NCBI GenBank assembly: GCA_963662355.1
Contig: OY759361.1
Location: 456,031-520,030, forward strand
Source: Gammaproteobacteria bacterium
GTDB taxonomy: Bacteria > Pseudomonadota > Gammaproteobacteria > UBA4575
Length of the DNA: 64,000 nt
Direction of reading: 5' to 3'
In this document: positions 17,464 to 54,200 of the stretch, one piece after another
Numbering within the stretch: the stretch's first letter is position 1
How the letters are laid out: each line of letters starts with the position of its first letter
Notes under the pieces: generated by a model
What the model was told of the DNA's origin: nothing
Databases searched by the model: none
What the model saw: the letters and a program-made list of their open reading frames with translations, nothing else
Translations under genes and position numbers: made by a program

Positions 17464-17540
17464 GGGCCTGTAGCTCAGTTGGTTAGAGCAGAGGACTCAT
17501 AATCCTTTGGTCGTAGGTTCGAGTCCTACCGGGCCCATCA
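17464..17540 (+). tRNA. tRNA with CAU anticodon, probably tRNA-Ile2; genomic 3' end reads TCA
   Basis: Cloverleaf GGGCCTG...CGGGCCC-A; anticodon loop CTCATAA; T arm GGTTCGAGTCC; position after rpoD favours Ile2 over Met. Confidence 0.92.
17496..17540 (+). repeat. attL, 45-bp direct repeat (tRNA 3' half)
   Basis: Identical to 32886-32930 except TCA versus CCA at the end. Confidence 0.95.
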
Positions 17541-17544
17541 ATTA

Positions 17545-17608
17545 TATCAATTACTTATGTATTTACTCTTTTCAGTCCCTGTATCATTCGGTACAATTCC
17601 GGTACACT
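17545..17608 (+). promoter_or_regulatory. IHF site and putative integrase arm-type sites
   Basis: TATCAATTACTTA fits WATCAANNNNTTR; CGGTACAATTCCGGTACACT (17589-17608) recurs near attR as CGGTACGTTACCGGAACACT (32747-32766), 16/20 identical. Confidence 0.6.
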
Positions 17609-17625
17609 TATATCGAGATAGACAT

Positions 17626-18666
17626 GTGGCGACCATAAGCAAAACTCCCTCAAACACTTGGAAGGCAATCATCCGCAAGCGCGGCTGGCCGACCACGATC
17701 AAGACCTTTCGTACTAAGCGCGATGCCCAGGACTGGGCACGTCGTACCGAGGATGAGATGGTGCGCGGAGTGTATATCGACCGGGCCGGATCAGATCGTC
17801 TTTTGTTAGATCATGCACTGAATCGCTACCTGCGCGAAGTTTCTTCCACCAAGCGAGCCACCACGGCCTATGCCGAGCACCACAAGGCCAAGGCATTAAA
17901 AGAAAGCCTGGGGGCTTACAGCCTGGCTGCAATCACTCCGAATCTCGTGGCTCAGTACCGGGATAAACGACTGGAGATGGGCAAGTCCAACAACACTGTC
18001 CGTCTGGAGCTGTCCCTGCTCTCGCACTTGTTCACCATCGCCATCAAGGAATGGCAGGTGGGCCTCTTCTACAACCCTGTGGCTAATATCCGAAAACCCT
18101 CACCTGGTAAAGGTCGCGACCGAAGACTGAGTACAGAAGAGGAAAAAAACCTGTTCAAAGCCTGTGATAGTCATTCCAATCCAATGCTGGGCTGGATGGC
18201 CCGCATTGCACTGTACACCGGCATGCGCGCCGGGGAGATCAAGTCGCTAACGCGCTTACAGGTAGACTTGGAGAAGCGCACTGTACATCTTACGGACACC
18301 AAAAACGGATCATCACGGACTGTGCCACTTTCTAGGCAGGCCACGGATGTTTTCCATGTTGCTCTCGGCAATCCTGTACGACCTTTAGATACGGACCTAA
18401 TATTCTGGGGTGAACCTGGAAGAGATGGAGTTCGCCGCCCCTATGAGTTTCGCCCGGCGTGGAGCCGCACCTTGAAGAAAGCCGGCATTGAAGGCCTTCG
18501 TTTCCACGATCTTCGCCATGAAGCGGTATCACGTCTGGTCGAGGCGGGTCTAGGAGACCAAGAGGTGTCTGCGATCTCTGGGCACAAGTCCATGCAGATG
18601 CTCAAGCGCTATACGCACCTGCGCGCAGAGGAACTAGTGGAACGTTTGGATCAGGCCATAGGTTGA
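17626..18666 (+). CDS. Tyrosine integrase of the island
   Basis: TGMRAGEI, TKNG, FHDLRH, ISGHK and RYTHL; immediately inside attL; GTG start. Confidence 0.95.
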   Translation: MATISKTPSNTWKAIIRKRGWPTTIKTFRTKRDAQDWARRTEDEMVRGVYIDRAGSDRLLLDHALNRYLREVSSTKRATTAYAEHHKAKALKESLGAYSLAAITPNLVAQYRDKRLEMGKSNNTVRLELSLLSHLFTIAIKEWQVGLFYNPVANIRKPSPGKGRDRRLSTEEEKNLFKACDSHSNPMLGWMARIALYTGMRAGEIKSLTRLQVDLEKRTVHLTDTKNGSSRTVPLSRQATDVFHVALGNPVRPLDTDLIFWGEPGRDGVRRPYEFRPAWSRTLKKAGIEGLRFHDLRHEAVSRLVEAGLGDQEVSAISGHKSMQMLKRYTHLRAEELVERLDQAIG

Positions 18667-20490: not shown

Positions 20491-23310
20491 TTACCGGCGG
20501 CTCTTTCGATTCTTCCGGCGTTTTTTCTTATTCGTTGCAGTGGTTAACGGTAGAGACATCCTCTCATAAAGTGTGAACAGGTACTCGACACGAGTGCGCT
20601 CGCTGGAAAATCCGCCACGTCGATAAAGACGATCAATCGCACGGTCGAGCGCCTGATGCGCTTTACGGAGATTCGGAGGCATCAAATCGGGGTCATAGAG
20701 ATTCGCAAGAGTGGCATTTGGATGAGCTTCGCGTGCATCGAGTACGGCCTGCCCCAGTGGTTCCAGTCTCGACAGGTCCGAGTCCTTGTCCGGCATCGGG
20801 TAGGTGTTATAGACGAGACCGATGGAGTAACGGTAGCGGCTTTCCAACCGTCCGCCGATATGTCGCAGCCAGGCCATATGCATCGCCGAGGTCAGTAGCG
20901 CGAAGTCCGTCAAGGTCGCATTCGCTAAAATCCTTACAAGGTTACTTGGGATGACGGGTGGCTTCAGCCACCCGATGGGCGCGTACTCCCGCCGCTCCGA
21001 GCTTACTTCGGGAATGACAAGAAACGGTGCATCAGGGATTACATTCACATGGTAGAGCGTTGGTGTTTTCGCAAGTTCCTGAGTCGGCTCACTTATACTT
21101 TCCTCACGATATGCTCGCACAGCAGCAATACGTTCTCGCACATGCGACAACCGCCCCAATACGTCGGGCGGCGTATCATGCAGAGCGAGAATCCACCGCT
21201 CGCCACCCTGCAAGTATTCGCGTGCCCCGACGAACGGTCGAAACCACTGCGCGGCTTCAGGTTCTGCTTCCAGAAACGCAGCGCGTTCCGCTACATCGAA
21301 AATGTAATTTCCGCCGTCGATGGGCTTTGAGCCTATTATTAATCTTTCCATCCCGTTGATCGGCGCACTTTCTTCTCTCACCACCAAATGAGGGTCCGAT
21401 AACCCACCAGCGTCGAACAGATACGGGGACAGCACTGTATGGCGGGTCTCTTCCGGCTCACCGTTGATATCGGGATAGCTGAATAGACGCTTCTTAGGTC
21501 GCACTACCTCCCTTCGATCGAGGCCGAGAATAACCACATGCACATGTGCTTTGCCCCGTACATCCGATCCCCAGGCGAACGTACGATGCGCGAACGCGAT
21601 CTCCAGCTTGCAGCGCTCGAACAGGATCGGCCAGAGTTGCGCCACCTGCTCGCCCGCTGTTATCGAGTTGGTCGCAACGAAGCCGATTCGGGCATCGCTG
21701 TCCTGCACATACTCTCCCGCCTTGATGTACCATGCGGCAACGTAATCCAGTGTGCCGCCGCTCCTGCCAAGTGCCGCGATCCTACGTACCTGCGCACGCT
21801 GAGTCGCTGTCTGGAACTTCGCACCTTTGAATGGCGGGTTGCCGAAGACGAAGGAACAGTTCTCCGGTGGCAGCAATTCAGACCATTCCGTTTCCAGTGC
21901 ATCACCGTGGATGATGTGTGGTGACTTCGCAAGCGGGATACGTGCATAGGACTGGCCGAAATCAAGGCTCAGCCGGTTGTTCATGATGTGGTCCATCATC
22001 CACAGTGCGGTCTCCGCAATGCGCGCCGGGAATTCGCCGAGTTCAATCCCGAAAAACTGATTGACATCGATGCAGGACAGCTGGTCTGAAGGAAGGTAGG
22101 AACCACCCTTCAAGTGCCTCATGCGAGCCAAGAATTTTTGGTGGATTTCCTTCAGGACCTCAATTTCAAGTTCACGCAACTCCCGATAAGCGATGATGAG
22201 GAAGTTGCCACAGCCACATGCCGGGTCGAAGAACATCATGCTGCCAAGTTTTTTCTGAAACCGCCGAAGCTCGGCCTGGCGCCGACTGTCCTTGCGAGAC
22301 TTCAGCCGCTCGAACTCGGCGCGCAAATCGTCCATAAACAGCGGCTCGATCACCTTGAGGATGTTCTTCTCGGTCGTATAGTGTGCGCCTTGGGCACGGC
22401 GTTCCTTCGAATCCATCACCGATTGGAACAACGCTCCGAAGATTGCAGGAGAGATGTTTGACCAGTCGAAACGGCAGGCATCCAACAGCAATTCACGCAT
22501 GACCGCATCAAAGGATGGGATGTGCAGCGGTCCATGGAACAAGTCACCGTTGACATAGGGGAATCGGGCAAGGTCTTCATCCAGGGTTGCCGTACGGACA
22601 TCCTCAGTTGTATCCAGCACCTGAAATAATTGGGCCAGCCACGGTCCAAGATCAGCACCGTCCTCACTCGTACGCGTCTCGATGAAGTCAAGGAAAATGT
22701 CACGCGGCTCGAAAACGCCCGTGTCATCGGCAAACAGGCAGAAGACGATCCGCACCAGAAAGCGTTCCAGATCATGACCTTGGTAGCCTGTTGCAGCCAG
22801 TGCATCATGCAACCGTCCAACCAGTTCCGCAGCCTTGATATTGGCCGGATTCTGGTCACGAAAGGTACGGCGTTGTACACCCATGATAAAAGCGAAGCTT
22901 TCCACATGGGCAGGTAGCTCTGCGAGCTTGAAATTTACTTGCCTTCGCTCATCCAGATCATGAAGCTCAAAGGACTGGAAATCGCTTGCCAAGACGTAGC
23001 GAGGGCGTTCGTGCTCAGGCAGTGCGTCAAAATATTCTCCAGCCTGCCCATACGCCTTTTTCAAATCTCGTCCGGCGCTCTTCTGCTCGACAATGAGAAC
23101 CCCGGGCCAGAATAGATCAATAAAGCCGGAAGTGTCGTCCAGTTTCTTTACATGCTCTTCATAGCGAGCAACGCTTCTCCGACGTACTCCAAATACTTCA
23201 AAAAATTCATTGTAGAAACTTTGCGCCTCACCTTTCTCATATGATGCATCCTGCCATTCATTGGCGAAAGCTGCCGCACGAACTCTAACCTCATTCCATG
23301 ACAATCGCAT
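20491..23310 (-). CDS. MmeI/YeeA-like fused restriction-modification enzyme (N6-adenine MTase)
   Basis: N-terminal nuclease-like motif IDLFWPGVLIVEQKS; GAHYT; DPACGCGNFL; GNPPF; C-terminal target recognition region. Confidence 0.9.
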   Translation of the reverse strand: MRLSWNEVRVRAAAFANEWQDASYEKGEAQSFYNEFFEVFGVRRRSVARYEEHVKKLDDTSGFIDLFWPGVLIVEQKSAGRDLKKAYGQAGEYFDALPEHERPRYVLASDFQSFELHDLDERRQVNFKLAELPAHVESFAFIMGVQRRTFRDQNPANIKAAELVGRLHDALAATGYQGHDLERFLVRIVFCLFADDTGVFEPRDIFLDFIETRTSEDGADLGPWLAQLFQVLDTTEDVRTATLDEDLARFPYVNGDLFHGPLHIPSFDAVMRELLLDACRFDWSNISPAIFGALFQSVMDSKERRAQGAHYTTEKNILKVIEPLFMDDLRAEFERLKSRKDSRRQAELRRFQKKLGSMMFFDPACGCGNFLIIAYRELRELEIEVLKEIHQKFLARMRHLKGGSYLPSDQLSCIDVNQFFGIELGEFPARIAETALWMMDHIMNNRLSLDFGQSYARIPLAKSPHIIHGDALETEWSELLPPENCSFVFGNPPFKGAKFQTATQRAQVRRIAALGRSGGTLDYVAAWYIKAGEYVQDSDARIGFVATNSITAGEQVAQLWPILFERCKLEIAFAHRTFAWGSDVRGKAHVHVVILGLDRREVVRPKKRLFSYPDINGEPEETRHTVLSPYLFDAGGLSDPHLVVREESAPINGMERLIIGSKPIDGGNYIFDVAERAAFLEAEPEAAQWFRPFVGAREYLQGGERWILALHDTPPDVLGRLSHVRERIAAVRAYREESISEPTQELAKTPTLYHVNVIPDAPFLVIPEVSSERREYAPIGWLKPPVIPSNLVRILANATLTDFALLTSAMHMAWLRHIGGRLESRYRYSIGLVYNTYPMPDKDSDLSRLEPLGQAVLDAREAHPNATLANLYDPDLMPPNLRKAHQALDRAIDRLYRRGGFSSERTRVEYLFTLYERMSLPLTTATNKKKRRKNRKSRR

Positions 23311-23812: not shown

Positions 23813-24610
23813 GTGAGCATCAGTGCCCGGGACTGGGCCCTTGCCCAGACCTTGGCGCCAGGGCCTAAGTTCGTCCTGGTGGTGCTGGCCGATGCTGCCG
23901 ATGACCAGGGTGTGTGCTGGCCAAGGATTTCCACGGTTGCAGAGAAGGTCGGGGTATCCTCCCGCACCGTGCAGCGCGCCATCCAGTATTTGGTGCAGCG
24001 AAAGTTGGTCGTGGTCGAGCCTAGGCTGCGCAATGACGGCTCGAGTTCCTCGAACCGGTACCGCCTAAGGTTGAATGCGGGTGACAGATTGACACCACCT
24101 CCTGTCATGCCTGTCACCCACCCACGACACCGGTGTCAGGGGGAGGGTGACACGGGTGTCACCCCTTTAACCGAAAGAAGAACAGAAAGAGAACCACCAC
24201 CACGCAAGCCCGTGCCAAAAGTTGAACCCAAAGCACCGGACCGTGGTGGTGGGAAGATCATTGATTTGCATTACCCGAAGGACCTGGCGCCCTCGGAAAG
24301 GGTTCGGGCTGAAGGGATGATCGGTGCACTGAACCCTCCGCTTAATCAGCAGGTGCTGGACGAATGGGCCGGAATCATCAAGGCAGGCGGCATACGCGCC
24401 TCGCCACTGGGTTGCCTTCGCGCATTGATCAAACGTGCCCAGGAAGGCAAATTTACACCGGAGCGAGGCCATCGTATCGCACAGGCGCGCCAGGCAGACC
24501 GAAGGGTTCAAGCCCAAGCAGCGAAGCTGCCAGAGCTTGCGCCCGTGGATGAAAGCAGTCCACTGGTGCGCCGTATACAGCGGATGGCCCAGCGCCAGGG
24601 CAAGGGATAG
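23813..24610 (+). CDS. HTH-containing replication-initiator-like protein
   Basis: N-terminal 'KFVLVVLADAAD..GVCWP.ISTVAEKVGVSSRTVQRAI'; C-terminal 'QQVLDEW...PLGCLRALIKRA.EG.FTP' resembles ICE Rep proteins. Confidence 0.7.
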   Translation: MSISARDWALAQTLAPGPKFVLVVLADAADDQGVCWPRISTVAEKVGVSSRTVQRAIQYLVQRKLVVVEPRLRNDGSSSSNRYRLRLNAGDRLTPPPVMPVTHPRHRCQGEGDTGVTPLTERRTEREPPPRKPVPKVEPKAPDRGGGKIIDLHYPKDLAPSERVRAEGMIGALNPPLNQQVLDEWAGIIKAGGIRASPLGCLRALIKRAQEGKFTPERGHRIAQARQADRRVQAQAAKLPELAPVDESSPLVRRIQRMAQRQGKG

Positions 24611-24896
24611 CCCGGCACACTGGAGACGGCGTATCTTCCGAGGCTCCAAACTGGCTGCACGAGATCTGACAACACTGGGGAGTCTGCCAGGCGACTGTAC
24701 GCCAGGAGGTCTTTTCTCCAAGCTGGATGTCCACGCACGAGCCCCGCGTCACTACCAAAGAGCGTAGCAAACGCGGTAGTGACGCGGCCACCTGCAGGGC
24801 TCAGAGGCTGACAGCACCGTACTGTGCGTTTTCGGGGTGCGAATGCCCCGCGAATTACGGCGTCGTAATGTTAGCCAAATGATAAGAAGATTTTCC

Positions 24897-24924
24897 GTGA
24901 CAGGATTGCACCGGATGGTATACT
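24897..24924 (+). promoter_or_regulatory. Sigma70-like promoter with extended -10
   Basis: GTGACA-N16-TATACT with TG at 24916-24917. Confidence 0.55.
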
Positions 24925-24930
24925 CACCGT

Positions 24931-25472
24931 AACGATTTTGTACCGGCGCCATGGCGGTATATCCATGGCAAAGAGGCACCTCCGGATCGTGTAACAGGTG
25001 CATCAGCCGCAAGGCTGCGATCCATCTTCAATACAGTCTGTATAGTTATACAGGCATTCGGAACCAGGCCCCTTGGGGTCGGTCCTGATCTTTAATACCA
25101 GGCTTCCTGCCTACGACACGTGCGGGGTATCCCTGTGCGCGTCACCCAAAACACTGTGTGCATGGCACATCGCCCGGACCTCTTGGTCAGGCGTTCGCTG
25201 TGCTGTACACCCGGCCATTTGTTTCAACCCCGTGGAGCGTATCCACGTAACTTCAAAATTAAGGAGGTGTAACCATCTTTAAGCATCGCCCCTTATGGGG
25301 CATCGGTACTGGCACAGGGCCACTCTTCAACTGAAGAGGACCTGTGCGGCCTTGACTGAGGCCCGACCAAGTCATTACGGGAGTCGTGTCCCATGAGCGT
25401 ATTCGCGCAAGCAAACCTGTACCGCCAAGGCGGCCAGGGGCTCAGAAACACTAACCAGACAAGAGAACACGT
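24931..25472 (+). ncRNA. Putative long structured leader or ncRNA upstream of the atypical recombinase
   Basis: A dozen or more consecutive stem-loops, GU pairs favouring the + strand, a GCAA tetraloop; no credible ORF. Confidence 0.5.
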
Positions 25473-26339
25473 ATGAAGACTTTGAACCACAACCTGAAAC
25501 AGCTCTGCAGGCACTGCCGGGAAGGCAGCTATGCCACGCAGAGAAACAGGGAACGGATCCTGACCCAGGCTGCGAATGAACTGCATGCGATGGGCTACCG
25601 GAAGATGCAGGCCAAATCGCTCAAACCGAAACACATCGAGGCCCTGGTCCAGCACTGGCAGGAAAGAGAGTTGTCCATTGGAACCATAAAGAACCGGATG
25701 GCCACCCTGCGCTGGTGGGCTGAGAAGGTCAACAAGCAGAACGTCATGGCCAAATCGAATGAACATTATGGTATCCCGGATAGAAGGTTCGTCACCAATG
25801 AAAGCAAGGCCAGGGACCTCACCGAAACCCAGCTTGACAAGGTGAAGGACGTCCACGTGCGCATGAGTCTGGAACTGCAGCGGGCCTTTGGTCTGCGACG
25901 CGAGGAGGCGATGAAATTTATGCCCAGTTATGCCGACCAAGGCGATTACATCCAACTGAAAGCGAGCTGGACGAAGGGGGGCAAGCCCAGGGCTATCCCC
26001 GTTCAAACAGAACACCAGAGAGCTGTCCTGGACAAGGCACGAGAACTTGCCGGCTTCGGCTCACTGATCCCGCCGCATCGAAGTTACGTGCAGCAACTGA
26101 GAGTCTACGAGGGCAATACCACAAGGGCCGGACTCTCAAACATGCACGGGCTTCGCCATGCCTATGCCCAGGACCGCTACGAGGAACTGACCGGCTGGAA
26201 GTGTCCGGCCACCGGAGGGCCAGATAGACGATCACTCACTCCGGAGCAACGGGAACTGGACAGAGAAGCTCGGCTCATCATCAGCCAGGAACTGGGGCAT
26301 GAAAGGGAACAAGTGACGGCAGCTTATCTTGGGCGGTGA
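25473..26339 (+). CDS. Atypical tyrosine recombinase (probably Phage_int_SAM_2 + Integrase_1 type)
   Basis: Catalytic set intact: GLRREEA, TKGG, HGLRH, ELGH and AAYLG. Confidence 0.88.
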   Translation: MKTLNHNLKQLCRHCREGSYATQRNRERILTQAANELHAMGYRKMQAKSLKPKHIEALVQHWQERELSIGTIKNRMATLRWWAEKVNKQNVMAKSNEHYGIPDRRFVTNESKARDLTETQLDKVKDVHVRMSLELQRAFGLRREEAMKFMPSYADQGDYIQLKASWTKGGKPRAIPVQTEHQRAVLDKARELAGFGSLIPPHRSYVQQLRVYEGNTTRAGLSNMHGLRHAYAQDRYEELTGWKCPATGGPDRRSLTPEQRELDREARLIISQELGHEREQVTAAYLGR

Positions 26340-26560
26340 TGTTATGTTACAAAGCCGCGATCTATAGCAAAAGAATTGTGTAGTAGAATGTGTACTCATT
26401 CCTACCAAACGCCGCTACGAAGAGCATGCGTTATAAACTAGTTATTATGTGATCCAAGGTAGAATCGGTCGTTCTAACTACTCAAACAAAATATGCTGAA
26501 CTATCTAAAAATTAAGCGCAGTCTGCTAAACAAACACAGAAAACAGGTCTGCAGAGGGTA

Positions 26561-27661
26561 ATGGCACCGGTTTGTTATCACGATGGGAAATTTCCACCCG
26601 TCAGGCAACTTGATTGGGAGGAACTGGTTCCGCTTATTGGTCCTGCATCTGCAGCTATTGCACGTTATGACGGAATGCTTGCTGCTATTCCGAATCCTGA
26701 AATTTTGTTATCGCCTTTGTCCACCCAAGAGGCAGTGCTTTCATCGAAAATAGAAGGTACACAAACTACTGTAGAAGAGGTATTAGAATTTGAAGCTGGC
26801 AAGACACCTGACACACCTGCTCGGCGTGAAGACTTTAATGAAGTGCTTAATTATCGTCACGCCATAAAACATGCTGAAGAGATGTTGAAAAATTTGCCGC
26901 TATCCGGGCGTGTAATACGCGATACACATTCTGTTTTGCTTTCAGGAGTACGTGGTGAAGGAAGAGCACCAGGCGAGTATAGGAGAATTCCCAATTGGAT
27001 TGGTCCACCTGGTTGCACCATCGAGAATGCTAGATTTGTTCCCATCGGGGCCGACAAACTTCTAGGTGCAATGAGTTCATGGGAGAATTTCTTACATGCG
27101 AAATCTCCCGACCTGCTTATACAACTTGCTATCCTGCATGCTGAATTTGAGGCATTACACCCCTTCTTGGACGGCAATGGTCGCTTAGGGCGTATGTTGA
27201 TACCGCTGTTTCTGTGGCAATACAGCCTCATACGGAAGCCTACGTTTTATATCAGCGCCTACTTCGACGCTAACCGTGAGGCTTACTATGAAAAGCTACT
27301 GGCTGTCTCCAGAGACGACGACTGGACTGGTTGGTGCAAATTTTTTCTCGCGGCAGTACAAGCCCAAGCTGAAAATAACTTGAGCAAAACTCATGACATA
27401 CTTACGTTGTACGAAAATATGAAAGAACAGATAGTGAACATGACACACTCACAGTACGCAATGCGTACACTGGATTGGTTATTTGAAAGGCCAATCTTTA
27501 GATCCTCTTATTTTGTGAAAAATGCAGGCATCCCACCAGCTACAGCAAGGCGACTTTTGAAGGTTCTGCAAAAAGAGGAGGTATTGCAAGTAATCGTACC
27601 GGGAAAAGGCCGACAGTCCACTTTATTTGCTTACATAGACCTCCTGAGTACTGCAAGATAG
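26561..27661 (+). CDS. Fic-family protein
   Basis: HPFLDGNGRLGR motif; inhibitory SSKIEG motif. Confidence 0.93.
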   Translation: MAPVCYHDGKFPPVRQLDWEELVPLIGPASAAIARYDGMLAAIPNPEILLSPLSTQEAVLSSKIEGTQTTVEEVLEFEAGKTPDTPARREDFNEVLNYRHAIKHAEEMLKNLPLSGRVIRDTHSVLLSGVRGEGRAPGEYRRIPNWIGPPGCTIENARFVPIGADKLLGAMSSWENFLHAKSPDLLIQLAILHAEFEALHPFLDGNGRLGRMLIPLFLWQYSLIRKPTFYISAYFDANREAYYEKLLAVSRDDDWTGWCKFFLAAVQAQAENNLSKTHDILTLYENMKEQIVNMTHSQYAMRTLDWLFERPIFRSSYFVKNAGIPPATARRLLKVLQKEEVLQVIVPGKGRQSTLFAYIDLLSTAR

Positions 27662-32885: not shown

Positions 32886-32930
32886 CTCATAATCCTTTGG
32901 TCGTAGGTTCGAGTCCTACCGGGCCCACCA
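32886..32930 (+). repeat. attR, duplicated 3' half of tRNA-Ile ending CCA
   Basis: CTCATAATCCTTTGGTCGTAGGTTCGAGTCCTACCGGGCCCACCA. Confidence 0.95.
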
Positions 32931-52563: not shown

Positions 52564-52690
52564 TATAGCCATCGCTGATGAGCACTAACAAAAGGGTATG
52601 TCAATACTACAATACACCTTTGTTCATCGCCATCGAAGCTAGTACTTGACAAATACATAATGCAGAAATCGCATACTTGGAAGAAATAAG

Positions 52691-52735
52691 TGGCGCGCCC
52701 GGAGAGATTCGAACTCCCGGCCGCCTGGTTCGTAG
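52691..52735 (-). repeat. att site: 3' half of tRNA-Arg(ACG)
   Basis: Reverse complement CTACGAACCAGGCGGCCGGGAGTTCGAATCTCTCCGGGCGCGCCA; no 5' half adjacent. Confidence 0.88.
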
Positions 52736-53962: not shown

Positions 53963-54155
53963 CTAGTGATTGTACTGTATTACCGTACATCATGCAATGC
54001 GATTGCTGTTAACAGGAAATCAAAGACTGAGGCTCAAGAACCTAATCGAGGCAGCTAACCGGGTGTGCTGGAAAAGTACTGCGCTGGTATTACTGAGACA
54101 GAAAGCAGCGACCGCATGATGCGGTAACTGCCTTATTAATTAGAATACGATTCAG

Positions 54156-54200
54156 TGGCGCGCCCGGAGAGATTCGAACTCCCGACCGCCTAGTTAGTAG
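54156..54200 (-). repeat. Second, degenerate tRNA-Arg att copy
   Basis: 42/45 identical to 52691-52735. Confidence 0.85.

Follow-up and report, generated by a model that had tools for sequence, protein, structure and literature searches.

The DNA analyzed here, a 64,000-nt stretch of a gammaproteobacterial genome (the window), contains an integrated island with an integrase of its own and, in addition, a gene for a 288-aa protein of tyrosine-recombinase fold that is preceded by a leader of about 540 nt. The question raised by this locus is what the leader and the enzyme encoded behind it do. The first-pass annotation, made from the sequence alone, had offered two options: a recombinase partnered with a large cis-encoded RNA (cofactor, guide or regulator), or a relaxase or resolvase acting on a folded single-stranded origin. 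As described below, the cis-encoded RNA of the first option and the relaxase of the second each received partial support, and a guide role did not.

The island and the 288-aa protein

The island is about 15.4 kb long and is located at a tRNA-Met gene (17464-17537, + strand; identified by ARAGORN and Rfam). The 3′ part of this gene (17496-17537) constitutes attL and its right copy, found as a direct repeat, constitutes attR (32886-32927, + strand). A canonical tyrosine integrase of 369 aa is encoded separately at 17557-18666 on the + strand (NCBIfam Xer/integrase-type matches, E 7.7e-18 to 1e-12), as had been claimed. The gene for the 288-aa protein (25473-26339, + strand) is indeed far from both att sites. 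Its upstream neighbor (23813-24610, + strand) encodes an HTH_36 protein; by Pfam and NCBIfam it is weakly similar to the STY4528-family island replication protein.

Pfam analysis of the 288-aa protein identified PF12834 (Phage_int_SAM_2) with 74.7 bits (cut-off 22) and PF12835 (Integrase_1) with 53.1 bits (cut-off 23). The full R-K-HxxR-H-Y set reported at the outset was confirmed by Pfam and by an alignment of 62 sequences, and consists of R142, K168, H225, R228, H276 and Y285; K168 and R228 are invariant and the other four residues are kept in at least 90% of the sequences. The AlphaFold2 model (pLDDT 97.1, pTM 0.88) has the two-domain fold, core-binding and catalytic, with TM scores of 0.55-0.62 to IntI4, lambda Int and XerH. 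Forty-five PDB chains matched it at E <= 0.001 (TM 0.5-0.62), nearly all of those listed being tyrosine recombinases or their close kin, and the helical N-terminal domain aligns with recombinase chains over ~290-345 columns. The top Foldseek match was an integron integrase (PDB 2a3v; E 9.7e-7, TM 0.59). Its score does not exceed those of lambda Int, XerH or Tn1549 Int, and the identity is 14-15%. PDB 2a3v, bound to single-stranded attC, is an example of a tyrosine recombinase acting on a DNA hairpin; no integron features are present at our locus. The enzyme family is large, comprising 3319 clusters at E <= 0.001, with roughly 450 close clusters.

These properties could be explained by an ordinary site-specific recombinase, serving as a resolvase of multimers or tandem islands or as a second integrase, with a core site in the upstream repeat described below and a long regulatory 5′ UTR in the leader. 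The complete catalytic set, the presence of both tyrosine-recombinase domains and the confidently modeled fold all suit such an enzyme; against it, the island already has an integrase.

Structure of the leader

In the region 24500-26600 a single sigma-70-like site was found, with 10 of 12 matches; it is the promoter with an extended -10 (GTGACA-N16-TGgTATACT; 24897-24924, + strand) that the first-pass annotation had proposed. Its TAnAnT -10 is kept in all 25 aligned same-genus copies and GTGAC of the -35 in 18 of the 25. The absence of a credible ORF downstream of it was also borne out, only short unconserved ORFs being present in 24925-25472. No conserved ORF was found in the ~550 nt before the ATG at 25473, and the lengths of indels in the leader alignment are not multiples of three. 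A 27-codon ORF at 25393 was considered as a leader peptide and rejected, its ATG being replaced by GTG, ATT, ACG or ACA in the alignment. An antisense RNA was likewise rejected: the terminator-like site on the - strand (25169-25157) is within chance expectation and unconserved, and a search of the leader region gave neither a conserved antisense promoter nor a conserved antisense terminator. No terminator was found on the + strand of the leader either. The structure described below begins a few bases 3′ of the -10 and stops at the ribosome-binding site.

Every stem-loop listed earlier is present in the sequence at its position. The + strand leader folds with -217.7 kcal/mol, as against -183 +/- 7.2 for shuffled controls (z -4.80), and none of 100 shuffles was as good; for the - strand, too, folding is better than in its own shuffles (z -3.15). 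Leaders from Haliea and pSIO1 gave z values of -2.42 and -2.16, and that of an Acinetobacter plasmid gave -5.22, driven by its 20-bp GTCACT hairpin. RNAalifold analysis of 25 same-genus leaders predicted 62 pairs, 23 of them with compensatory changes. The 3′ domain and both helices of a pseudoknot covary among these homologues. The comparison with shuffles and the covariation demonstrate that the leader fold is real and under selection.

The fold is biased toward one strand. In the MAFFT-based alignment 45 cells are G-U and 19 are A-C; the earlier statement that the GU pairs work only on the + strand thus had the direction right, and its "only" was an overstatement. Among tetraloop hairpins with stems of at least 4 pairs in 25 related leaders, GNRA loops make up 43 of 386 on the + strand versus 7 of 360 on the - strand, and GCAA, GAAA and GUAA interchange in the alignment within the same leader loops.

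The leader could not be assigned to a family in Rfam 15. A search of the whole window at gathering score returned tRNA only, and a search of the leader at E <= 10 returned only chance matches to microRNA, snoRNA and HIV models. None of the riboswitch, EFASI, STAXI and ColE1 RNA models in Rfam 15 matches the leader, no EFASI or STAXI motif was found at gathering score in 14 related loci, and no similar DNA was found in E. coli genomes. Conserved, covarying and strand-biased in its structure, the leader is uncatalogued so far (absent from Rfam 15).

Its 5′ domain (24932-25034, + strand; 121.9 bits with model R2) starts with the hairpin GCCATGG/CCATGGC (24948-24969). The proposed pairing of GCACCT (24976-24981) with AGGTGC (24996-25001) crosses that of GGATCG (24984-24989) with CGATCC (25018-25023). 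Both helices of this pseudoknot are well supported, being 96.7% and 100% paired, respectively, with two covarying pairs in each, and CAGCC-GCAA-GGCTG (25004-25017) forms an inner hairpin. Single-sequence folding and RNAalifold also predicted long-range pairing of CACCTCC (24977-24983) with a Shine-Dalgarno-like AAGGAGGTG (25261-25269); this has a double change in one cell only and several C-A mismatches, and competes with the better-supported GCACCT/AGGTGC pseudoknot. Outside the genus the 5′ domain is weakly conserved (E 0.003-0.7 in Halieaceae). Orphan copies of it are present away from the recombinase-like gene.

The middle part (25035-25310, + strand) is variable in the alignment and consists of hairpins of variable length, with a motif CCATCTTCAA recurring after stems. 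Among the minority of its stems that were counted formally, CGTGGA/TCCACG has UA at pair 402:418 in 16 sequences and CG in 9. This part is nearly absent from a third copy in the same genome, where matches to models R1 and R2 lie 46 nt apart (G000:C1:556053-556348).

The alignment and a covariance model define the 3′ domain (25311-25464, + strand) as five hairpins closed by a GAGC/GCUC helix, with a near-invariant unpaired box GAAACACTAACC (25445-25456) preceding the ribosome-binding site. For its 39 pairs, 93.7% of cells are paired in the 25 same-genus copies, compared with 33-44% when partners are slid, and double-sided changes occur in 15 pairs compared with 3-7. In a wider set of 44 distinct sequences, 29 of the 39 pairs show compensatory changes in an alignment fitted to the model. 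In 44 of 54 sources the covariance model matches immediately 5′ of the gene. Neither the 5′ nor the 3′ domain was found ahead of the plasmid homologues that are most distant. A candidate second pseudoknot, between a hairpin loop UGACU (25355-25359) and AGUCA (25374-25378), has modest support from the sequence comparison: the mean number of pairs is 4.47 versus 3.44 with shuffled linkers, and all 5 pairs form in 8 of 17 versus 9.8% of shuffles.

A leader that is conserved, covarying and strand-biased, and that starts at a conserved promoter, fits an RNA. However, a particular DNA strand that folds while being transferred would show equal covariation and strand bias, and the - strand, too, folds better than its shuffles; that the fold acts as RNA rather than as single-stranded DNA is what we infer from the sequence evidence. 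In the latter case the fold would belong to the strand transferred after nicking near the upstream repeat, its hairpins being accessory oriT structures or a signal at which the recipient starts synthesis of the complementary strand, and the transcript would be incidental. Covariation and wobble bias suit any single-stranded + strand, and such a role would also be consistent with the orphan 5′ domains lying apart from the gene and with the top structural match being an integrase with a folded single-stranded site, the equal scores of lambda Int and XerH notwithstanding. We nevertheless consider it unlikely. The structure is bounded by the conserved -10 and the ribosome-binding site, and crossing helices and long invariant unpaired boxes are more usual in RNA. 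The excess of GNRA tetraloops on the + strand and their exchange point the same way: GNRA exchange is typical of RNA, although DNA loops of the GNA type are stable too.

A replication pre-primer resembling ColE1 RNA II, made for the excised island or for small plasmids, would also fit the leader's length (~550 nt), strong promoter and dense folding. The upstream neighbor resembles island replication proteins, and pSIO1 is without an annotated Rep gene. Yet ColE1-type RNAs in Rfam do not match, a conserved antisense promoter or terminator was not found, the majority of plasmid carriers encode a Rep of their own elsewhere, and the leader always adjoins the recombinase-like gene and never Rep. 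This makes a pre-primer very improbable.

The upstream repeat and gene neighborhoods

The most widely conserved cis element is located 5′ of the promoter, outside the coordinates covered by the first-pass annotation. It is the inverted repeat CCGCGTCACTACC / GGTAGTGACGCGG (24744-24787; 13 bp, loop of 16-18 nt), the best upstream repeat in most loci. Its core GTCACT...AGTGAC is invariant, and the arms outside the core change on both sides. The exact core pattern is present in single copy in 94 of 126 fetched loci (Alpha-, Beta- and Gammaproteobacteria), and the half-site spacing varies from 3 to 23 nt across loci; the same GTCACT hairpin appears in the Acinetobacter plasmid fold. The spacer between the repeat and the promoter (24788-24896, + strand; CACCGTACTGTGCG..., GAATGCCCCGCGAATTACGGCGTC) is conserved at the genus level only, as judged from the alignment and flanks.

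Core sites of tyrosine recombinases have a fixed 6-8 bp spacer, so a hairpin accounts better than a recombination core for the variable spacing of the repeat. The changes in both arms are no proof of a hairpin, since symmetric protein-binding sites in double-stranded DNA also co-vary on both arms. In many same-genus copies, the arms CGTGTCACT / AGTGACGCG contain a T-G wobble readable solely on the + strand, which also suits the single-stranded DNA interpretation of the leader. The repeat is a probable recognition hairpin, or oriT core.

A guide RNA, with loops that would direct the recombinase to its DNA site, might be expected from a large structured RNA with a variable middle part beside a recombinase-fold gene. 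Exact matches between leaders and their own repeat regions were compared with those between unrelated loci (64 loci, 300 cross pairs). The longest matches averaged 8.58 for own loci versus 8.59 for other loci in the same sense, and 8.38 versus 8.60 in the complementary sense. Own-locus matches being no longer than unrelated ones, and the best-conserved loops being invariant while the repeat arms vary, a guide role, as suggested earlier, appears extremely unlikely.

A gap of ~800-900 nt 5′ of the gene is common to most loci, while the genes around it differ. Of 71 upstream ORFs, only 6 contain HTH_36, the domain of the upstream neighbor here, and 9 are integrases. Among 70 downstream ORFs there are 29 integrases, the rest being defense or cargo genes, and only two coupling proteins. 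The varying neighbors and the recurring gap indicate that the cassette travels as one unit.

Of 13 plasmids examined, four have a type IV coupling protein encoded immediately 3′ of the homologue: pSIO1 (4.9 kb), a Pleionea plasmid, Acinetobacter pIEC338SC2 (5.6 kb) and Psychrobacter pA15BP2 (7.9 kb). Each of the four has been typed as "non-mobilizable" and is without another annotated relaxase in the stretch examined. This proximity of plasmid homologues to coupling proteins fits a relaxase. No coupling protein was found within 3.5 kb of the homologue on the other nine plasmids, nor in the present island. Small ORFs of 73-96 aa follow the homologue on 6 of the 13 plasmids.

These observations bear on the possibility of an ordinary recombinase raised above. 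Many carriers are small plasmids with Rep and without a nearby transfer gene (pFNL10, pHS-Rec, pSHE-2), and in Halieaceae the gene adjoins a canonical integrase and a tRNA, both of which such an enzyme would explain. On the other hand, there is one copy of the repeat per locus, its half-sites are 3-23 nt apart, and the gene forms an operon-like unit with the coupling protein on the four small plasmids. A recombinase is therefore an unlikely explanation, and we infer relaxase activity from gene context and sequence.

A putative mobilization cassette

In the interpretation that we prefer, and to which we give an even chance, the leader and the hairpin are the control region of a portable mobilization cassette within the 15.4-kb tRNA-Met island. 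The order of its elements would be the GTCACT/AGTGAC hairpin, the sigma-70 promoter, the ~540-nt leader, a near-invariant box AACACTNACC adjoining the ribosome-binding site, and the 288-aa protein, a probable recombinase-like (MOB_M-type) relaxase. After excision of the island by the canonical integrase, the relaxase would recognize the hairpin, cut one strand with Tyr285, and pass the excised island to a helper conjugative element's coupling protein and secretion system. The leader would be transcribed as RNA together with the gene, as the promoter suggests; a look through the public runs listed for 24600-26400 found no RNA run. This RNA may either set the amount of enzyme or be a component on which transfer depends, in the manner of sgm-sRNA of Salmonella Genomic Island 1 (SGI1).

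Recombinase-like relaxases were recognized only recently. The described examples include TcpM of pCW3, MpsA of SGI1 and MobK of pIGRK (PMC8152469, PMC6414798), and MobK, TcpM and MpsA are described by Nowak et al. as being without the arm-binding and core-binding domains of recombinases (PMC8152469). According to a 2026 preprint, recombinase-like relaxases are the commonest chromosomal relaxases; the MOB_M group is common in chromosomes, 96% being near an integrase, and its profile is used with a score cut-off of 84 (bioRxiv 10.64898/2026.01.13.699239). Compared by description rather than by sequence, our protein resembles MOB_M in having a tyrosine-recombinase catalytic domain with a Tyr nucleophile, and in being found near integrases on islands and also on small plasmids typed as non-mobilizable; as reported for MOB_M, such proteins are usually annotated as integrases and missed by relaxase typing. 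It differs in belonging to another Pfam family (PF12834 with PF12835) and in its core-binding-like N-terminal domain, residues 1-83 matching PF12834, and its relaxase role is predicted.

The cassette is comparable, by analogy, to mobSGI1 with its sgm-sRNA. In the published accounts mobSGI1 consists of promoter P5, oriT, sgm-sRNA, mpsA and mpsB (PMC6414798, PMC9299015), and a 650-700-nt primary transcript upstream of mpsA gives rise to an RNA essential for mobilization (PMC9299015). As far as these descriptions, rather than sequences, can be compared, both are integrated mobilizable islands (putatively so in our case) with a canonical integrase elsewhere, and in both a tyrosine-recombinase-like gene is preceded by 550-700 nt of non-coding sequence with abundant inverted repeats; the present sequence is presumed to be transcribed. 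The functional core of the SGI1 RNA is described as adjoining the gene. In contrast to the SGI1 oriT, which is placed inside the transcript in those accounts, the repeat here is 5′ of the promoter. The protein here also has its own N-terminal domain of core-binding type, and no mpsB-like gene is present, with no + strand ORF of at least 40 aa in 26339-26561 (222 nt).

More tentatively, the leader might be a large RNA of 300-600 nt that is a dedicated partner of the relaxase, an RNA subunit of the relaxosome, the part that sgm-sRNA seems to play in SGI1. This arrangement, which we regard as possible but unlikely, would be general for the class, with RNA families differing by lineage, and the subunit encoded here would contain at least one and perhaps two pseudoknots.

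The mobilization cassette proposed here would provide another RNA family, independent of the first and strongly covarying, on a different lineage of such enzymes. It would also supply a clearly delimited candidate DNA site in the GTCACT hairpin, which is common to loci ranging from Alphaproteobacteria to small plasmids of Acinetobacter and Vibrio. Halieaceae include harmless cultured carriers of the 3′ domain, namely Haliea salexigens DSM 19537, Kineobactrum sediminis F02, Pseudohalioglobus lutimaris HF004 and Parahaliea mediterranea DSM 21924. The locus thus makes it testable how recombinase-like relaxases find and cut their origins, and why SGI1 needs an RNA for transfer. Our data also suggest that many plasmids typed as non-mobilizable may be mobilizable.

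Conserved structure of the leader

Folding of the 548-nt leader (24925-25472), the non-coding stretch between the promoter at 24897-24924 and the gene of the 288-aa protein, gave -217.7 kcal/mol (z -4.80), where dinucleotide shuffles gave -183 +/- 7.2; the z value for the opposite strand was -3.15. Every stem-loop listed in the first-pass annotation was found in the sequence. The promoter proposed there is the sole sigma-70-like site within 24500-26600, and its -10 element TAnAnT is retained in 25 of 25 same-genus leaders and the GTGAC of its -35 element in 18. Of 12 further genomes of the genus, 10 carry leader and gene, in several copies each and with DNA identity of 71-85%. The genome carrying the window has three copies: the gene of the second (L021:2356-3222) is interrupted by an in-frame stop (codon 118) and has an ATC start while its leader is intact, and in the third only 46 nt separate the 5′ and 3′ domains of the leader.

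RNAalifold predicted 62 pairs for 25 distinct same-genus leaders, and compensatory changes occur in 23 of these. The leader was also said to lack a credible ORF, and this is borne out by the same alignment: the start codon of the sole candidate is lost in many copies, and the indels have lengths that are not multiples of three. The aligned start codon of the enzyme gene is ATT in L010, L007 and L109 and ATC in L011, L021 and L111 (6 of 26 distinct same-genus copies) and ATG in the others; these six, with an in-frame TTG three codons further on, may start at a rare codon or at a shifted position. In locus L115 (1600-3900) the hairpin repeat and the entire leader are kept, together with an IS-like integrase insertion, and two small ORFs resembling a putative toxin-antitoxin pair stand in place of the enzyme gene.

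The 5′ domain (24932-25034) contains the pseudoknot GCACCT/AGGTGC noticed at first reading, which is paired in 96.7% of cases, one pair alternating between A-U, C-G and G-U. The helix that it crosses, GGATCG/CGATCC, is paired throughout (100%), with two covarying pairs. Within the genus the 5′ domain is strong, even in copies at only 73% protein identity; in Halieaceae it is weak (E 0.003-0.7), yet in the equivalent position. Orphan 5′ domains were found 2-3.5 kb from any gene copy (G000:C1:558163-558264 on the - strand, in the genome carrying the window; L097:349-455; L094:158-264; L012:116-210); the domain may act as an independent module.

In the alignment the middle part consists of hairpins with tips of variable length. 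CGTGGA/TCCACG, the sole middle hairpin counted, has U-A in 16 sequences and C-G in nine. The motif CCATCTTCAA (variants GATCTTTAA and CCATCTTTAA) occurs three times in the leader (25022-25031, 25087-25095 and 25273-25282), each time directly 3′ of a stem ending in CC, and loci L018, L020, L105 and L007 have additional inserted units of hairpin and motif; the repeated unit may serve to bind protein or RNA. A perfect and conserved Shine-Dalgarno-like AAGGAGGTG (25261-25269) lies ~210 nt upstream of the real start with no ORF following, and the 5′ domain holds an anti-SD-like CACCTCC (24977-24983). Long-range pairing of the two is predicted, but scarcely covaries.

For the 3′ domain (25311-25464) 39 pairs in eight helices were written down. 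Pairing was found in 93.7% of cells, as against 33-44% when the 3′ partners were slid by 1-3 columns; both sides had changed in 15 pairs (3-7 when slid) and in 69 cells (3-12 when slid). A second pseudoknot within this domain has modest support. Full-length matches to the covariance model of the domain (R1) were obtained from 44 of 54 sources (E <= 6e-9), all ending a few bases 5′ of the start codon. They included every Halieaceae locus (protein identity 61-65%) and two betaproteobacterial records; among the sources searched, pSIO1 and the Pleionea, Francisella, Acinetobacter and Psychrobacter plasmids gave no match. In the wider alignment 29 of 39 pairs were compensatory and 94.4% of cells paired, but that alignment is model-fitted and so biased towards the structure. 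Among 150 further genomes of the class, each from a different genus, six have the 3′ domain (genome G177 is one of them), a patchy spread consistent with a mobile element. The consensus structure does not visibly occlude the ribosome-binding site, and a simple translational switch is thus not evident.

RNA or single-stranded DNA

The first-pass annotation offered two options, an RNA encoded in cis with a recombinase or a folded single-stranded DNA origin for a relaxase or resolvase. The MAFFT alignment has 45 G-U cells and 19 A-C cells in its supported pairs; the model-fitted alignment, itself biased, has 78 and 13. In hairpins of the 25 related leaders with stems of at least four pairs, GNRA accounts for 43 of 386 tetraloops on the + strand (11%, with 3% expected from composition) and for 7 of 360 on the - strand; GCAA, GAAA and GUAA interchange within the same loops. 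The conserved structure begins directly after the conserved -10 element and runs to the ribosome-binding site, with no + strand terminator within it. Together these sequence features lead us to favour an RNA made together with the gene. The + strand may also have a role as single-stranded DNA, with which the same points are compatible.

A family-wide hairpin signature

Upstream of the promoter, and outside the region first described, lies a 13-bp inverted repeat with the invariant core GTCACT...AGTGAC (24744-24787). From lineage to lineage its outer positions change in both arms (CCGCG, CCGTG, CCCTCG, CCCACG, CATGGCG), and its loop is 3 to 23 nt long. The exact core pattern occurs exactly once in each of 94 of 126 loci, some of which are duplicates or short contigs; the chance expectation, estimated from pattern length, is ~0.01 per locus. 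The carriers include Vibrio pSIO1 and plasmids of Acinetobacter, Psychrobacter, Shewanella, Agrobacterium and Legionella. The Acinetobacter plasmid has a GTGACA-type -35 element and the box AACACTAACC 5′ of the gene, and the same box, as GAAACACTNACC, is near-invariant everywhere the 3′ domain is found. The signature common to the family is therefore hairpin, promoter, box and gene, and the large folded leader between them differs in detail from lineage to lineage. The -35 hexamer GTGACA (24897-24902) has GTGAC in common with the repeat core, as is also the case on the Acinetobacter plasmid (L117), so a repeat-binding protein might bind the promoter as well. In pSIO1 a PAGEV RNA (RF03037, 122 bits; L001:348-565) lies outside the leader, ~1.4 kb upstream of the gene copy.

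The enzyme, its island and related systems

The tRNA-Met gene in the window is the host site of a 15.4-kb island with a 42-nt direct repeat at its ends (17496-17537 and 32886-32927). The canonical integrase already attributed to it was located at 17557-18666 by NCBIfam profile matches. Among the cargo genes are one for a complete MmeI-family restriction-modification protein (20491-23310, - strand) and, after the 288-aa gene, one for a Fic/DOC-domain protein (26561-27661, + strand). In sister copies EcoRII, Mrr, methylases, PIN or AbiEii genes occupy the matching position, which indicates that the islands shuttle defence genes. An HTH_36 protein weakly like island replication proteins (23813-24610) is separated from the 288-aa gene by 863 nt without a credible ORF; the usual non-coding gap 5′ of the gene is ~800-900 nt. 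Elsewhere in the window a 47-nt direct repeat is present twice (52689-52735 and 54154-54200), its copies being 94% alike at a spacing of 1465 nt; both resemble tRNA gene ends on the opposite strand, and ARAGORN called no tRNA at either.

The 288-aa protein (25473-26339) matches PF12834 (N-terminal SAM-like domain) and PF12835 (Integrase_1), and the catalytic set recognized at first reading (R142, K168, H225, R228, H276, Y285) is kept across 62 family members. At E <= 0.001 the family comprises 3319 clusters, and at E <= 1e-30 it has 454. A confident structure model (pLDDT 97.1) had IntI4, lambda Int, XerH and Tn1549 Int among its best PDB matches (TM 0.5-0.62, identity 13-19%), nearly all of which were tyrosine recombinases or close kin. 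Downstream of the gene, 29 of 70 ORFs are canonical integrases (the Halieaceae arrangement, with a tRNA adjoining), two are coupling proteins and the remainder defence and cargo genes; upstream, nine of 71 are integrases and six HTH_36 proteins. Since the neighbours vary on both flanks, the cassette travels as one unit.

In four of 13 plasmids examined a type IV coupling protein is encoded directly downstream of the gene; these plasmids are small and typed non-mobilisable, and the annotation of the stretch examined lists no further relaxase. No transfer genes were present within 3.5 kb on the remaining nine. A relaxase and a coupling protein form the classical mobilisation pair. The tyrosine-recombinase-like relaxases TcpM, MobK and MpsA have been described (PMC8152469, PMC6414798), and a 2026 preprint reports that among chromosomal relaxases this kind is the most common, 96% being near an integrase (bioRxiv 10.64898/2026.01.13.699239). 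On the coupling-protein pairing and these precedents we consider the 288-aa protein rather probably a relaxase of the general TcpM/MobK/MpsA kind, and a candidate member of the MOB_M family. It has a core-binding-type N-terminal domain, a feature said to be absent from the three founders.

SGI1 is the closest precedent and has a similar layout. In that island a primary transcript of 650-700 nt starts from a promoter and crosses the oriT region in the direction of mpsA; its 3′ part, adjoining mpsA, is an RNA essential for mobilisation (PMC9299015). The present locus differs in the position of its conserved hairpin, 5′ of the promoter, and in having no mpsB-like gene after the enzyme gene. Matching of the leader with the repeat region gave no support to the earlier idea of a guide RNA. 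Our reading is that the leader is a transcribed RNA functionally tied to the putative relaxase, either controlling its synthesis or acting as its RNA partner; of the two we lean slightly towards cis regulation. The leader has no match in Rfam, and the literature found under the PF12834/PF12835 names contains only annotation-level mentions, such as a 'phage integrase' beside mcr-4.3 (PMC9769806). The locus thus adds an RNA family and an enzyme lineage, both new, to a known kind of module.
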